A DNA stretch of 64,000 nt from a virus. Positions 1-53,097 of the stretch are shown one piece after another. Within the stretch, counting starts at the first letter, position 1. Each line of letters opens with the position of its first letter. The notes under the pieces were generated by a model. That model saw nothing but the letters and a program-made list of their open reading frames with translations. It searched no databases and was not told the DNA's origin. Location of the stretch: positions 64,001 through 128,000 of IMG/VR virus record IMGVR_UViG_3300032516_000004; one strand, given 5' to 3'. Position numbers and translations under genes: made by a program.

Positions 1-5
1 TGCTT

Positions 6-173
6 GATGGTTTAGTGCCACCGCTAGACTATTTAGTTTCACCCCCACTTGGTGGGGCGGCTGCTTCGGCAGTATATAAACTGTTCCCAGCCCGCAATTT
101 CGCGAGCTGTAGAACAAGGTGGGATAACACCCGTACCCTTGGCATAGGGTACAAACGATCGAGGGGCTGCTCG
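6..173 (+). ncRNA. Candidate structured RNA / 5' leader (omegaRNA/HEARO-like position); may extend 5' of the window
   Basis: Back-to-back stems read by eye: 6-17/22-33 (12 bp, 4 G-U pairs), 43-48/52-57, 61-64/69-72 with a C(UUCG)G tetraloop, 82-95/102-116 (interrupted), 118-121/128-131, 133-139/146-152, 160-163/170-173. Ends 3 nt before the ATG of a PLMP-domain ORF. Confidence 0.5.
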
Positions 174-176
174 TGT

Positions 177-1109
177 ATGGGCCGGTCTCAGGAAATTATC
201 GTCCTCGATTCGGAGCGACGATTTCTCGAGTATACGCGACCTGGGACTGCGAGATTGTTGCTAAAAGAAGGCAAAGCACGTGTTTTCTCTAGGCAACCAT
301 TCGCAATAATGCTCTTACGCACGGTGTCAGCTGCCGAGATTAGAAGGAGAATAGTCATGCCAGCACCCCGTAATTTTACTGAGTATTTCCGTAACGAGAA
401 GGATGTGTACGTTCAGAATCTTGCGAACGCACAGGTATCCTGTGAATTCCCTATTGGGCCTAATAGGGTCGAGGGATTCACGTTCCCACACAATCGGGAC
501 CCCATCAATCTGACTCAACATATTCCATTTCATGCTATTAAAGATTCCATGGACTTTCGTAAAATGTTGAGCCGTAGACCCCCAGCCCTTCAACTTTTGA
601 ATGAAGAAGAATATAATGCTTATTTTGAGAAAAGAGCATCACAACAGGGATTAAAAGATAGATCTGGGAAATTAGATATTGATGCGGCTATTGACTCGAG
701 TGAGGAAAAGCGTCGTCGAACCGCAGATAAAAATCTTCGTGAGAATGTAACTGATAAAGACCCAGAACCCATACATGAAGTTATTGAAAGCGGTACCGGT
801 CCCAAGGGTGCTACTCATTTTGGGGAACGTAACCGCGTAATGCCAAAAGAAGTTGTAGCAGAAGACGATATTATTAACCCTCGAGTTCTTCATCTTTGCA
901 ATCAGGTAAAGAATGAGATTCCTGAAGAAGAAAGAATGCCTGCCAAAGACCTGCTTGATGAACTCCAGGGACTTCCAGATTTGAAACTTGATGATCTTGA
1001 GCATATTCGTGCTCATGGATTTTACAAAAGCGTGAAAAAATGGAGTAAACAGAAAATGTCTGAAATATCAGACAGTGAAGAAGCTGAAAACACTTCAGCT
1101 GACGAGTAA
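177..1109 (+). CDS. PLMP/RRXRR-like N-terminal domain fused to a hypothetical phage (probably virion-associated) protein
   Basis: ATG177 follows GAGGGG. IIVLDSERRFLEYTRPGTARLLLKEGKARVFSRQPFAIML matches the IscB N-terminal pattern VLD-x4-LxxTxPxxARxLLKxGKAxVxxxxPFxIxL. A second in-frame ATG357 has AGGAG at 345-349. No RuvC or HNH motifs seen. Confidence 0.7.
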   Translation: MGRSQEIIVLDSERRFLEYTRPGTARLLLKEGKARVFSRQPFAIMLLRTVSAAEIRRRIVMPAPRNFTEYFRNEKDVYVQNLANAQVSCEFPIGPNRVEGFTFPHNRDPINLTQHIPFHAIKDSMDFRKMLSRRPPALQLLNEEEYNAYFEKRASQQGLKDRSGKLDIDAAIDSSEEKRRRTADKNLRENVTDKDPEPIHEVIESGTGPKGATHFGERNRVMPKEVVAEDDIINPRVLHLCNQVKNEIPEEERMPAKDLLDELQGLPDLKLDDLEHIRAHGFYKSVKKWSKQKMSEISDSEEAENTSADE

Positions 1110-8269: not shown

Positions 8270-9142
8270 ATGTTATTGGAAGATACCATCGTTATTGGAA
8301 AGACCTGTAGTAAATGTGGGATTTATAAACCATATTCGGAATTTCATAAAAATACTAGAACCAAAGATGGATGTGTAATTTATTGTAAAGAATGCAATAA
8401 AGAACATAGTAGAACATGGTACCACGCAAACCCAGAAAAACGTAATAACCGGGCTACACGGCTTGCTGGTAAATATGAAGGTATAACGAATAAAATTTGT
8501 GCCAAATGTAATAAGTTAAAGCCATTTTCAGAATTCTATAAATCATCTAATAATGCTAGTGGACATAAGCCAACATGTAAGGCGTGTGTTTGTGTGGAAG
8601 AAACTAAAAGAGCTAGCAATCGCACGTTGTCCATTACACATAAAATCTGTAGTACCTGCGGTATTGATAAACCGGTAACTGATTTTGTGAAGGACAAATA
8701 TAAGAGTGATGGATATCATCAAGAATGTAGAGCATGTAAAGCGATTTACAAAAAAGAGTACTATAAAAAGAATAGAGAATGGCTAATTAAACAAGGCGCA
8801 CAAAGATTACACACCAGCATTCAGTCACGATTATCACATTTATTGCGCACTAGAATTACCGGCCTTGTTAGAAGCGGTACAAAAGCAGGATCTGCGGTTC
8901 GTGATCTGGGTTGCTCAATTATTTTCTTGAAAGAATACCTTGAGCAAAAATTTTATAATCATCCAACGACTAATGAGCCAATGACTTGGAAGAACCGTGG
9001 GCAGTATGGTTGGCATGTTGATCATATTAAGCCATTGGTTCAATTTGATCTTACTAATCGTGAACAGTTTTTACAGGCTTGCCACTACACCAACTTGCAA
9101 CCTTTATGGTGCATGGATAATTTACGTAAAGGAGCGCTCTAA
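8270..9142 (+). CDS. Free-standing HNH (beta-beta-alpha-Me) homing-type endonuclease with three CxxC...CxxC Zn-binding repeats
   Basis: Repeats KTCSKCGIYKPYSEFHK...YCKEC, KICAKCNKLKPFSEFYK...TCKAC, KICSTCGIDKPVTDFVK...ECRAC; C-terminal WHVDHIKPL...CHYTNLQPLW...N.KG. Confidence 0.8.
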   Translation: MLLEDTIVIGKTCSKCGIYKPYSEFHKNTRTKDGCVIYCKECNKEHSRTWYHANPEKRNNRATRLAGKYEGITNKICAKCNKLKPFSEFYKSSNNASGHKPTCKACVCVEETKRASNRTLSITHKICSTCGIDKPVTDFVKDKYKSDGYHQECRACKAIYKKEYYKKNREWLIKQGAQRLHTSIQSRLSHLLRTRITGLVRSGTKAGSAVRDLGCSIIFLKEYLEQKFYNHPTTNEPMTWKNRGQYGWHVDHIKPLVQFDLTNREQFLQACHYTNLQPLWCMDNLRKGAL

Positions 9143-11625
9143 TGGCACTCGAACTATCGGGCTATCAAGACCCAGGCACATACATTGGCGAAGTAGTTAA
9201 CCCGGCTCAAATTTCATTAGCTACGGTCCCAGATGTTCTCGCCATTGTTGCTCATGGTAATCGTAGCAAGCGTTCGACTAATGAAGCGGTAAAGCGTGGT
9301 CAGGTATTTAGTGAAACTCTCACTGTTGCTGGTGTCGCGCCACATACGGCTACTTTAGGTAGCCGTGGTGATCGTAGAGTATCAAACACCACGGTTCGTA
9401 GAACATTGTCTGGTGAAACGATCGAGCTGCCTGATTCTGCGATTAGTTTTGGTTTTGCGGTGTTAACTGGCAGCGTCCTTACTACAGTTGACATTAGTAC
9501 GGCTAAAGCATTTGGTTTCAAGATGGATAATGGACAAGAAATTACTATCCAGCTTGAATATAATATGGCCGCAAGTACAACAATCTCAGGATCGTTGGTT
9601 ATTTCAAAACACCCATTTAGTGGGGTTGCTGGTGCTTCGGCAACACCAGCTGAGATTGCAACGGCTATTAATGCCGCGTTAGTTGCCGCGACTACGCTCG
9701 GATATGGTACAACATACGCAGCCGCCGTAACTGTTTCAACCAATAAATTGGTGTTTACCAGTATTCTTACTACCCCATATTCTGATGTATATATTGTTGC
9801 TCCATTTGCAAATAGCGGAACGGCTGTTTTAGGCTTTACAGTTCCAGCATATGCTTCAACAATTGTCACTATTGCCACCGTATATTACAATGTATCTGCT
9901 ACATATGAAATCGATTATGTGGCGGTGAATACATCTCTTGATCCGCTTACAAACACCGCAACCAAGATTACGCGAACTGGTTCATTTGCCAATGTGACAA
10001 GTTTTTACGAGAATACCGATTATTTACTAACTACTGGTGATATTGACTGGTCGCCAGATACAGCGGCTTCATTTACTGGCTCACCATCTGAAAATTTTGA
10101 TCTCAGCACCAATGATAATATTAGGGTGGCGTTTGATGGTAAAGCTGCAGTAACGATTGATCTTAATAATGGTGCGTTAGCTGGTGTAGTGCCGGGCTAT
10201 GCGGTTCCAGTTGCACCTGCAGCCACTACTGCTGAAGAAGTCGTTAATAATATTAATGCTGTAATAGCTATTGCAGCTAACTATGGACCAAAATACCGGG
10301 CATGTGCTGTAACAGCGGCTACTGGTACTAAGGTCAAGTTGGTGAGTCCGACCGAAGGTATTGCATCTAGCATTGAGCTTTCTGCTCCGACATCATTGAA
10401 TGCGACCGCTGCTATTTTTGGTTTAATTCCTTCACAACTTCCTTATACAGTGCTTGGTCTTGGTTCTAAGCCAGGAATTGGGGTCATTTATTTTATTACG
10501 TACGACTATGATAGACCAACAGCGGATTACAATAATCCTAAGAGATATTTCAGCGAAGATCAGATGACCGCTGATCTTACGCCAGTGTCTATGGCTAATA
10601 TACTGTCAACATATGGACAGATTACATTTGAAAATGGTGCTCCATCGGTAGTGTGTTGCCAAGTTAACGACCTAACACTCCCCGGATTCCCAACCGTCAA
10701 TGAGATTAAATCGGCAATTGATGCGCTGGCGATATCATCTGTCACCACTGATGTGGTGGTAGCTGATACTAGACTTAATGTTCAGACTTACCTAGTGAAC
10801 CATATTGAAGTTCAGAGCTCGCCTACGGAAAAGAATTATCGATCCGGTTGGTTTGGCATGCCGACCAGCACATTGGTTGGTGATAAAGATACCCCAGACA
10901 CATTCGTCTATCGAGCGGCTGTTACACTGCAGGTTGCTCCTGATAGTCCAGCTCGAGGCCGCATGATTCTTGTTGCCCCGTCTGGTGTTGATAGAACAAT
11001 TAGTCTTGAGGATGGTTCGCAGCTCACACTTACCATGAATTCAACAGCATTGTGCTGCGCTATCGCGGCTAGACACACAAGCTTTACATCACCGGCCATT
11101 TCATTAGCCAATAAGACTATCACGGGATTCGACGCCACGACATTCCCCATCTATTTAAAGGCTGAAAGAGCACAACTGGCATCGAACGGTGTTATGGTTG
11201 TGACGATGGATGGTGGAAACCTTCGAATTTTAGATCCAGTTACAACTGAAGCTGGTGGTGGCGCGGCATCCAAGTTTATGTATCGGGAGACCGCATCACA
11301 AAAAGATAATGTCAGCAGGTTAATGGATCAGATAATTTCTAATAATCTGCAGGGTGTTGTGCCTACAGATTTGTCAGATTTCGTGTTCGATATTAAGGTA
11401 TTTGTTGCGGCGGTGTTAACGTCACTTATTGAGACAGGTGCTATTGGTCCATTCAGAGATGCTAATGGCGTGTCACGGGATATTGATCTTTCTAAGGATG
11501 TTCAAGCAGAACAAAGCAAGAATGATCCTACGAAATTCAACTTCCGTTATTGGTTCTTCTTGAGATATCCAGCATTACGATTTATGGGTCAGTTCTCAAC
11601 GGACAACCCATTCTTCAACGCATAA
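9142..11625 (+). CDS. Contractile tail sheath protein
   Basis: N-terminal YQDPGTYIGEV; C-terminal sheath core (LASNGVMVV...LRILDPVTT...F...YPAL) and 827-aa size; followed by tube genes. Confidence 0.9.
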   Translation: MALELSGYQDPGTYIGEVVNPAQISLATVPDVLAIVAHGNRSKRSTNEAVKRGQVFSETLTVAGVAPHTATLGSRGDRRVSNTTVRRTLSGETIELPDSAISFGFAVLTGSVLTTVDISTAKAFGFKMDNGQEITIQLEYNMAASTTISGSLVISKHPFSGVAGASATPAEIATAINAALVAATTLGYGTTYAAAVTVSTNKLVFTSILTTPYSDVYIVAPFANSGTAVLGFTVPAYASTIVTIATVYYNVSATYEIDYVAVNTSLDPLTNTATKITRTGSFANVTSFYENTDYLLTTGDIDWSPDTAASFTGSPSENFDLSTNDNIRVAFDGKAAVTIDLNNGALAGVVPGYAVPVAPAATTAEEVVNNINAVIAIAANYGPKYRACAVTAATGTKVKLVSPTEGIASSIELSAPTSLNATAAIFGLIPSQLPYTVLGLGSKPGIGVIYFITYDYDRPTADYNNPKRYFSEDQMTADLTPVSMANILSTYGQITFENGAPSVVCCQVNDLTLPGFPTVNEIKSAIDALAISSVTTDVVVADTRLNVQTYLVNHIEVQSSPTEKNYRSGWFGMPTSTLVGDKDTPDTFVYRAAVTLQVAPDSPARGRMILVAPSGVDRTISLEDGSQLTLTMNSTALCCAIAARHTSFTSPAISLANKTITGFDATTFPIYLKAERAQLASNGVMVVTMDGGNLRILDPVTTEAGGGAASKFMYRETASQKDNVSRLMDQIISNNLQGVVPTDLSDFVFDIKVFVAAVLTSLIETGAIGPFRDANGVSRDIDLSKDVQAEQSKNDPTKFNFRYWFFLRYPALRFMGQFSTDNPFFNA

Positions 11626-11670
11626 CCCGATGATTGTCGGAGACCTTAAGGTTTAACAGGAGTTTTAGTC

Positions 11671-12162
11671 ATGGCAGACCCTTCACCGCCAGGAACATTA
11701 GTTCGCACGTCTCATTCCCTAACGATTAGAGTTAAAGGTGTTACCATTGGTCTTATCAATGGTTGGAACCCAACTCAAAGTAGAACCATTACCCCAATCT
11801 ATCAAATTGCGACATATGATCGACAGACCAGAAGCGGTGAGCCAGTAGAGAAGGTACCTGGCAACGTTACAGGTCAAACGATCGGCGTTCAGAGATATGA
11901 TATTTACACACAACGAATGGAAACAGCGTTTGGAACTACAGACCTGTCAATGTTGTCCATACAGATCGATCCATTCGATGTTGTAGAAAAGTGGATGTTC
12001 CCACAGACTGAACGTAGACCACAAGGTGGTACTGAATACGTAACATACACGGGTTGCTGGTTCTCAAATATTGGCAGAAATTTTCGATCTGATGGTGATC
12101 GAATTGTCAATGTTAATGCCACCCTCGAGTATGTACGTCGTTCGTTGGGACAAGTCTCGTAA
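11671..12162 (+). CDS. Tail tube protein, paralogue 1
   Basis: Follows the sheath; RTSHSLTIRVKGVTIGLINGWNPTQSRT...YTGCWFS...VNVNATLEY. Confidence 0.8.
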   Translation: MADPSPPGTLVRTSHSLTIRVKGVTIGLINGWNPTQSRTITPIYQIATYDRQTRSGEPVEKVPGNVTGQTIGVQRYDIYTQRMETAFGTTDLSMLSIQIDPFDVVEKWMFPQTERRPQGGTEYVTYTGCWFSNIGRNFRSDGDRIVNVNATLEYVRRSLGQVS

Positions 12163-51834: not shown

Positions 51835-53097
51835 ATGAGTGCAGTTATTAATCCGTACAAGCGTCTTGCTGCAGCCGGGGCGGCAAAGCCTACCAGCGAG
51901 CAACGTAAAATGGTTGCAAGTTCTGCCACGCCGAAGGCTGTTGAGCAACATAGGACAAAGGCGGCAGAAAACACTCATCTGGCTTCTCGTGAAGATGAGA
52001 AGGTATGGGATGAGAGTGGAACATTTAACCCCACCGCGTATGCCGGTGAGACGACCCGCGATGGTATTCGTCAAGCGGTTGGCAACACCAAGCTGTCAGA
52101 GCGTATGTTCGACAAGCGTGGTGAAGTTAACGCGTATGATGACAAGGACGCCCTGCAACAGATTGCCTACTTGCTCCAAAGTGTAACCAAGAAGGCATCT
52201 CCTGGCACCTTCTATCGTGAAGCGTCTACTGATATGCCAGCTGAGGAGCGCCGCAAGGTTCTCGCAGCCGCCATGCAGGATCCCTCGGGTGAGGGTTTCG
52301 CGATTGTTGGTCAGGAGTTGTTGCTCCCGATCAAGGACATCATCGATTACGAAGGTTGGGCTCGGAAGATCTATCGGGTTCGGCCACTCGCTCAGGGTGA
52401 GTTGTTCCGTATCGCGAAGGATGTTCGTGCAACGGCTTGGGTTGTGGGACAAGATGGTCAGTCGATTGAGAGCCGTTTGTTCGGTCGTTTCATTCAGCCG
52501 TCAGAGTTCAAAGTTACGGCATTCCCGACCGTCGACATCGAAGACATCTATCAGATGAACTATGATGTTTTGGATCGCGCTCAGGATACCGCTCGTCAAG
52601 AGATCGAGTTGGAAGAGGACAAGCGAGGCTTGGCTCTTCTAGATCGAGCTGCTTTGACCGTGAATTCGGTTACGATTTTCGCGACTCTTGGAATTTCGGC
52701 GTTTGAAGACGTTCGATACCAGGTTGAGCGGCATCGTCTGATGGTTGAGAAGTTCTTGATCAACCGTGCCGAGCTTTCTGATATCGTGAAGACCATGAGT
52801 ACTCAGGTGGATCCGGTGACCGAGCGCGAGTTGATCCTCGCCGGTTATATTGGTAACATCTTGAATGCTCAGATCATCACGGCCGCTGGTACTGGAGTTG
52901 AGGAAGTGGTACCGAGAGGGACATTCTACGCAGCCACCGGTAGTGAGTATCTTGGCGAGATGGGTGTAAGGGTGGAACTGTTTTCTGAGCCCTTCAACAT
53001 GTTTTCGCACCGTCGATTAACGAAGGGTTGGGCGTTTGGCGAGATCGTTGGGTTCGGTATTCCGAACCCACGTAGTGTCAGCAAGGGACACAAATAA
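51835..53097 (+). CDS. Major capsid protein (HK97 fold)
   Basis: AGGAGG RBS; GQELLLPI...DYEG.ARK...QGE...AKD; P..EFKV.AFP.V..EDI; D..Q..A.Q.I..EED; follows protease and decoration genes. Confidence 0.85.
   Translation: MSAVINPYKRLAAAGAAKPTSEQRKMVASSATPKAVEQHRTKAAENTHLASREDEKVWDESGTFNPTAYAGETTRDGIRQAVGNTKLSERMFDKRGEVNAYDDKDALQQIAYLLQSVTKKASPGTFYREASTDMPAEERRKVLAAAMQDPSGEGFAIVGQELLLPIKDIIDYEGWARKIYRVRPLAQGELFRIAKDVRATAWVVGQDGQSIESRLFGRFIQPSEFKVTAFPTVDIEDIYQMNYDVLDRAQDTARQEIELEEDKRGLALLDRAALTVNSVTIFATLGISAFEDVRYQVERHRLMVEKFLINRAELSDIVKTMSTQVDPVTERELILAGYIGNILNAQIITAAGTGVEEVVPRGTFYAATGSEYLGEMGVRVELFSEPFNMFSHRRLTKGWAFGEIVGFGIPNPRSVSKGHK

Follow-up and report, generated by a model that had tools for sequence, protein, structure and literature searches.

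The DNA analysed here, hereafter the window, comprises 64,000 nucleotides, namely bases 64001–128000 of the 177,941-bp sediment virus record IMGVR_UViG_3300032516_000004 from IMG/VR. It carries an open reading frame (ORF) in which a PLMP domain, otherwise known from the IscB and IsrB proteins, is joined to a conserved phage protein and preceded by a structured RNA. The start of this ORF and the leader RNA ahead of it lie in a 420-bp gap between divergent genes, with small zinc-ribbon ORFs and an MT-A70-type methylase on the minus strand upstream of the gap and a run of late genes on the plus strand downstream of it. The gap is also an island of elevated G+C content (53–55% against 35–42% in its flanks). 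A scan of it for promoters and terminators recovered no terminator and two promoter-like sites that did not clearly exceed those in shuffled sequences. From the ATG at 177 to position 1109 (+) there is one ORF of 310 aa, which runs without a stop from the PLMP domain into a 250-aa part; a 369-aa version proposed by a gene caller (P0004) is mere read-through of the upstream RNA. Among sequencing runs, the locus was traced to the probable source metagenome and to one DNA run with a small share of it, and to no RNA run.

IscB is a transposon nuclease and the presumed ancestor of Cas9, and the PLMP domain is the single part of IscB and IsrB that Cas9 has lost. An earlier note on this DNA, made from the letters alone, had claimed that the ORF begins with the N-terminal pattern of IscB, that FLEY replaces the PLMP tetrapeptide, and that the frame continues into a 250-aa protein devoid of RuvC and HNH motifs. 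All three observations held up in the analyses described below.

A nuclease-free PLMP domain

A search of the ORF against Pfam matched the RRXRR family (PF14239) to residues 7–54 (nt 195–338) with an E-value of 2.2e-9 and 37.9 bits, above the gathering threshold of 25, the match spanning only positions 1–48 of the 174 in the model. The same search of 177–1109 found no second family, no RuvC and, at E ≤ 10, no HNH family; the 250-aa C-terminal part has no Pfam match. When a profile built from 39 phage N-terminal domains was compared with the PDB, it recovered the solved chains of TbaIscB (9K30, E 6e-14), OgeuIscB (1.5e-8) and IsrB (8DMB, 0.012), so that the N-terminus is significantly matched both by the Pfam family and by IscB proteins of known structure.

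Structure prediction is in agreement with these profiles. In the AlphaFold model (predicted local distance difference test, pLDDT, 83.6) residues 7–46 form four strands and a helix, and the model superposes on the PLMP domains of IscB and IsrB with Z-scores of 7.8–9.0, the closest being TbaIscB (9K30; Z 9.0, root mean square deviation 1.3 Å over 51 residues, 37% identity). The structural matches to IscB are confined to residues 5–57, and the top nine Foldseek matches in the PDB are all IscB or IsrB. Entries for the IF3-N domain, to which the PLMP domain has been likened (PMC9581776), ranked below these with weak E-values of 0.5–1.8. FLEY does stand at the position of the PLMP tetrapeptide; the basic ARxLLKxGKA helix is retained, but not the tetrapeptide itself, the motif that in IscB touches RuvC. 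Every position that is invariant across the family is intact in the copy in the window, and the rest of the genome contains no other RRXRR copy and no full IscB. Residues 5–56 are a genuine IscB/IsrB-type PLMP domain, free of any nuclease.

Conservation of the fusion and selection on the domain

Searches with the C-terminal part recovered 103 protein clusters, about half of which were called with an RRXRR domain, down to 36% identity. We fetched 8 viral and 70 metagenomic loci, together with look-up loci, and classified them with hidden Markov models; another three could not be assigned, as their upstream sequence was too short. Among the resulting 71 distinct related loci, the in-frame PLMP fusion was present in 53 (51 with a single domain and 2 with a tandem double), and it persists in loci whose C-terminal domains are as little as 30% identical. 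Three loci (L049, L091 and L093) instead carry a separate PLMP ORF directly upstream of the C-domain gene, the PLMP region is broken in one (L017), and it is absent from 12. L091 illustrates the split arrangement: the reading frame of a 71-aa PLMP protein is separated by 20 nt from a downstream 249-aa gene whose product is 44% identical to the C-terminal domain of the window. Two tandem PLMP-like domains precede the C-terminal domain in L059, L060, L061, L063 and protein P0119, and in L059–L061 the open frame reaches up to 266 codons further upstream.

Rates of substitution were estimated by the method of Nei and Gojobori. The median ratio of non-synonymous to synonymous rates (dN/dS) is 0.18 over 44 core codons of the PLMP domain, a value indicative of purifying selection, and 0.30 in the C-terminal domain. 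For the PLMP domain the pair L005/L020 gave a dN of 0.052 with a dS of 1.94 and the pair L006/L010 a dN of 0.010 with a dS of 0.717; close pairs have dN/dS of 0.01–0.03 with dS saturated. These low ratios argue that the domain is translated and constrained as a protein. The earlier note had weighed exaptation of the PLMP module against the stump of a decayed IscB insertion. The profile match, the 53 fusions among 71 loci joined by three split forms, the low dN/dS and a covarying RNA shared with the relatives (see below) favour exaptation: the fusion is not peculiar to this genome and, judged from these comparisons of sequences, the PLMP domain is not a decayed stump in the family as a whole.

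Two starts in one frame

The methionine at the border between the two domains is conserved throughout, and lineages devoid of PLMP begin there. In 47 of 49 fused loci a GGAG-type motif is found 5–12 nt ahead of this in-frame ATG, while the linker peptide differs entirely between groups. That the motif and ATG are kept despite a varying peptide points to selection acting on the nucleotides. The copy in the window has a strong Shine-Dalgarno sequence here, with its ATG exactly at the domain border, and in roughly half of the clusters the short form was the one chosen by gene callers. Given the retention of these signals at the border, a long and a short isoform are to be expected, and we describe 177–1109 as a late gene with two predicted in-frame starts, yielding a long product with the PLMP domain (ATG 177) and a short one consisting of the C-terminal domain alone (ATG 357).

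A structured leader RNA

The 195 nt preceding the PLMP start were aligned for 16 relatives. RNAalifold predicted 37 base pairs, 30 of them with compensatory changes. One invariant helix was replaced by a pseudoknot, in which the loop of helix P1 pairs with a GGUGG stretch, and the pairs were counted on this revised model: 31 of 39 show compensatory double changes, 92.9% of the cells pair, compared with 73.3% in shuffles, and covariation is scored at 0.64, as against 0.27 in shuffles and 0.08–0.14 in slid controls. The resulting leader of about 190 nt comprises six covarying helices and the pseudoknot, and lies directly upstream of the PLMP start. The pseudoknot columns (44–48/173–177) are paired in all 16 sequences; a single compensatory change is seen, in L024, and two further changes are wobbles. 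The start codon lies within the last helix: 2 of the 3 pairs of the start helix (170–172/179–181) covary among the relatives, and in the minimum free energy (MFE) fold of the window the Shine-Dalgarno sequence is paired with codons 2–5. The MFE of the window leader is -78.9 kcal/mol (z -2.87). A further pairing, between the UUUAC flank and a GUGAAA stretch, was checked by eye and dropped as inconsistent. The features of the locus are collected in Table 1.

Table 1. Features at the head of the window, with the evidence for each
Feature	Positions	Strand	Evidence and remarks
Structured leader RNA	1–182	+	Match to covariance model R1, covariation, MFE; predicted to start about 10 nt before the window; helices P1–P5, pseudoknot and start-site hairpin
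Pseudoknot, 5' strand, in P1 loop	18–22	+	Predicted to pair with 118–122
Helix P2 with flanks	37–60	+	Putative counterpart of the 3'-terminal hairpin of omegaRNA; 4/5 pairs covary
Pseudoknot, 3' strand	118–122	+	Covariation count
Hairpin with Shine-Dalgarno sequence (161–166) and start codon (177–179) of the long isoform	161–187	+	MFE fold, covariation
PLMP domain, residues 5–56 of the long isoform	189–344	+	Pfam, PDB profile, AlphaFold superposition, dN/dS
Internal Shine-Dalgarno sequence (344–349) and ATG (357–359), predicted start of the short isoform	344–359	+	Kept in 47/49 fused loci
C-terminal domain, 250 aa, conserved head-module protein	357–1109	+	Homologue search, gene context, model

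A covariance model of the leader built from the 16 relatives (R1), which ends 6 nt into the ORF, scored 136.9 bits on positions 1–182 of the window and 147 bits on L001:1490–1682. Its matches to the full leader are restricted to the close clade (119–176 bits); in distant fused loci it gave only weak matches, albeit at the correct place, and it matched neither a true iscB locus nor any other site in the window. What distant fused loci share is a reduced core, consisting of a UWAC-C flank, a hairpin A, AG, a few bases and a hairpin B, which was found in 20 of 31 (1.7 in shuffles). Loci lacking PLMP have neither this core nor a multi-helix leader.

The earlier note, pointing out that the PLMP domain contacts the omegaRNA in OMEGA systems, had suggested that it may have been exapted together with a cognate RNA, for example for autoregulation via the leader, packaging of RNA or tethering of a morphogenesis protein. 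This idea survives in part: there is a covarying leader common to the relatives, and one of its hairpins matches the 3' end of omegaRNA, but the leader as a whole is not a HEARO/omegaRNA scaffold. Neither HEARO (RF02033) nor any other Rfam family was detected at E ≤ 10 in the window leader or in 13 related loci, while HEARO scored 105 bits on the true iscB locus used as a control, and the leader bears no sign of a guide.

A family hairpin of the type found at the 3' end of omegaRNA

In the true iscB locus an element composed of UAAC-C, a hairpin and AG follows the HEARO match and precedes the start of iscB. We fetched 80 iscB loci, of which 75 were scored for a strict form of this terminal motif. 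It is present in 57 of the 75 iscB leaders (7.1 in shuffles), as UUAC-C, a 4-bp stem, a mostly GNRA-type loop and AG at 8–39 nt before the start codon. The strict form also occurs in 28 of 47 leaders of fused phage loci (3.2 in shuffles, with a maximum of 7), whereas no more than one of 7 loci lacking PLMP has it. A 23-nt covariance model built from the iscB hairpins only (R2) was then run over 62 phage loci, amounting to 455 kb over both strands; at E ≤ 10, 9 of its 14 matches fell on the plus strand at the expected site in the leader, with 11.7–17.6 bits. This placement is far beyond chance, because the target sites make up, by our estimate, less than 1% of the bases searched. On held-out true iscB loci the model gave 8–30 bits at the right place. 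In the IsrB structure the PLMP domain makes contact with SL7/SL8, the terminal hairpins, and with the Shine-Dalgarno sequence (PMC9581776), and in that of OgeuIscB it contacts the terminal hairpins mainly without sequence specificity (PMC9640706).

Two further hairpins of this kind were observed in the same genome. The best R2 match in the window is at 11619–11643 (+; 14.3 bits, E 0.19), a UAAC-C hairpin followed by AG, at the 45-nt gap between an 827-aa ORF (9142–11625) and a 163-aa virion structural protein (phrog_985, 11671–12162); the PLMP domain may have a second target here. The other, at about 91–112 of L004 (genome position 48462), has the UAAC-C hairpin with AGG and is situated after a stop codon and ahead of the Shine-Dalgarno sequence and ATG of a 106-aa ORF without a PHROG match; R2 did not match it at E ≤ 10, and it may be a chance occurrence.

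The C-terminal domain and its genomic context

In the relatives the gene for the C-terminal domain directly follows that of the major head protein (phrog_2522). The two are adjacent in most of them; in the present genome they are 52 kb apart, that of the major head protein being at 51841–53094 of the window. Minus-strand zinc-ribbon ORFs and an MT-A70-type methylase are the upstream neighbours here (L001 1–1435), an arrangement that recurs on a contig of P0008. The C-terminal domain is modelled with a pLDDT of 87; searches for its fold, with Foldseek against the PDB and by wider structural comparison, returned only generic helical matches (Z < 7) and no convincing fold. Its matches in BFVD are uncharacterised proteins of about 200–240 aa from jumbo phages, among them PaBG and Motura (E 3e-7 to 1e-6) and, with less support, BcepSaruman (E 6e-4). 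The full-length AlphaFold model has no confident contact between the PLMP and C-terminal domains (predicted template modelling score, pTM, 0.49).

A proposed role for the PLMP domain and its alternatives

Taken with the leader that precedes it, the PLMP domain suggests autogenous control, the likeliest of the roles considered here and a proposal on which we stand evenly between belief and doubt: the domain would bind its own leader and limit synthesis of the long isoform, the short one being made freely. By analogy with the complexes of IscB and IsrB with omegaRNA, it would contact the leader hairpins, and binding would lend stability to the fold that closes off the first ribosome-binding site, whereby the long isoform would limit its own synthesis. 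The internal start would stay open, fixing a low ratio of long to short product.

Several observations weigh against this proposal. The E-values of single R2 matches on phage leaders are weak (0.08–3.6), only their placement being significant, and the hairpin of the window itself departs from the consensus in having a UCAC flank, a 2-nt loop and a CGG tail; R2 did not match it at E ≤ 10. The remainder of the leader shows no detectable likeness to HEARO. The strict motif is missing from about 40% of the fused loci, and in split forms, L091 among them, the leader is short and AT-rich, from which it follows that the link between PLMP and the C-terminal domain is wider than that between PLMP and the RNA. 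Finally, in the closest relative (L017 1–263, 84% identical) the PLMP region has suffered a deletion and a frameshift, while the leader, the internal Shine-Dalgarno sequence and the C-terminal domain are intact. PLMP is dispensable in at least one lineage, because here it is broken with its leader kept.

The main alternative, which we hold to be rather unlikely, is that PLMP serves in assembly as an adaptor, a handle binding nucleic acid or protein that would place a few copies of the C-terminal domain in the assembling head or on the packaged nucleic acid. The leader would then be a separate cis element, concerned with mRNA stability, processing or the control of read-through downstream of the strongly expressed capsid gene, and not bound by PLMP. 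Such a role would suit a link that survives as a fusion, a tandem double and split genes, even without a structured leader, a gene placed directly after that of the major head protein in relatives, and the extensive protein contacts of PLMP in IscB (PMC9581776); a hairpin also follows the capsid gene in L083, a locus without PLMP. It fits poorly with the absence of both the UUAC-hairpin-AG motif and the multi-helix leader from loci lacking PLMP; nor does it readily account for the motif in common with iscB leaders, which would be puzzling were PLMP and the RNA unconnected. The want of a confident interdomain contact in the AlphaFold model likewise speaks against it.

The near-universal internal start raises another alternative, in which conservation of 177–356 would stem from the structure of the RNA or from a regulatory ORF upstream and only the short product would matter. 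The Shine-Dalgarno sequence and ATG retained in all but two of 49 fused loci, the frequent calling of the short form and the L017 lineage, which does without an intact PLMP, are all in line with it. But substitutions in this segment are overwhelmingly synonymous, the leader model extends no more than 6 nt into the ORF, the protein encoded is confidently modelled as a PLMP domain, and free-standing PLMP genes exist; we think this alternative quite improbable. Lastly, the notion that a deletion in an IS200/605 IscB element inserted upstream of the gene left the 3' end of an omegaRNA and the first 55 codons in frame, to drift as a decaying remnant, would accommodate the G+C island over 1–350 of the window, the broken PLMP of L017, the off-consensus hairpin and the single RRXRR copy in a genome with no full IscB, but for the family it is very hard to credit in view of in-frame fusions in 53 distinct loci of C-domain identity as low as 30%, dN/dS of 0.01–0.3 (with dS near or beyond saturation), the intact invariant positions of the window copy and the compensatory changes in the leader.

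Comparison with known systems

The phage domain shares its fold with the PLMP domains of IscB and IsrB (PDB 9K30, 7UTN, 7XHT and 8DMB), to which it has detectable sequence homology. In both settings it is placed at the extreme N-terminus, directly after a structured RNA, and many leaders of the phage family have in common with those of iscB, upstream of the start codon, the hairpin made up of UUAC-C, stem, small loop, stem and AG, from which the window copy deviates. The proteins of the two groups otherwise diverge: RuvC, bridge helix, HNH and TI domains are all missing from the phage protein, which has the FLEY tetrapeptide and an attached head-module protein. The RNAs differ as well, in that the HEARO scaffold and guide have no match or sign in the phage leader, while its helices P1 and P3–P5 and its pseudoknot are lineage-specific.

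A second parallel is provided by TldR and related nuclease-dead derivatives of TnpB/Cas12f, which are likewise parts of a transposon RNA-guided nuclease selected for a role outside transposition, also in phages (bioRxiv 10.1101/2023.11.30.569447). Those, however, are whole inactivated effectors that use a guide RNA against DNA targets, while the phage locus retains no more than an accessory domain of 55 residues and a single RNA hairpin, with no effector core and no evident guide.

With regard to the proposed regulation, T4 RegA, gp32 and the ribosomal-protein autoregulators bind structures at their own ribosome-binding sites. The logic suggested here would be the same as in RegA and gp32, but the RNA-binding folds are unrelated, and in the phage gene the PLMP domain is only on one of the two expected isoforms. 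Genes nested in one frame, whose two starts give long and short products, are also familiar from T7 gene 4A/4B and lambda C/Nu3, which share with the present gene the common frame and the internal Shine-Dalgarno sequence and ATG; the N-terminal piece of the phage gene differs in being a presumably captured transposon domain with a putative RNA partner.

Breadth, origin and implications

The PLMP profile recovered 3034 representatives at E ≤ 1e-3, which include many proteins of 52–130 aa and tandem repeats as well as true IscB. In an unrooted quick tree a single branch separates the phage and IscB domains (approximate likelihood ratio test support 95.8, from 46 columns), a topology compatible with a single origin and with transfer in either direction. 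A 191-aa protein (P0114; L174 3001–3576) has three PLMP-like repeats; its gene is preceded by those of an AAA ATPase and a UvrD-type helicase and followed by a 456-aa gene with a faint match of the Cas12f/TnpB type. A 65-aa free-standing PLMP ORF (P0107; L175 36–233) overlaps the start of a 359-aa protein with faint helix-turn-helix matches, and this last case suggests that PLMP modules also sit ahead of genes outside the head module.

In view of the second hairpin at 11619–11643, the free and tandem PLMP proteins and the presence of PLMP ahead of unrelated genes, one might envisage that PLMP and the hairpin constitute a free-standing switch acting in trans on late genes, with copies of the hairpin preceding further virion genes. 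It may even be the source from which IscB/IsrB acquired their N-terminal domain and the terminal hairpin of omegaRNA, and not a derivative of them. We regard this reading as rather doubtful.

The earlier note did not recognise the architecture as a described one, and indeed in the literature that we searched no description of a nuclease-free PLMP protein in phages was found. To our knowledge there is also no earlier case in which reuse of an OMEGA system took place at the level of a domain rather than of a whole effector. A large family of sizeable uncultured phages keeps the PLMP domain without a nuclease, under selection and with a hairpin of the omegaRNA type, which presents PLMP as a probable autonomous RNA-binding module and offers a natural system in which its function can be studied alone. 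It may yield a compact and portable protein-hairpin pair for translational control, and may show how the contact between protein and the 3' end of omegaRNA arose.
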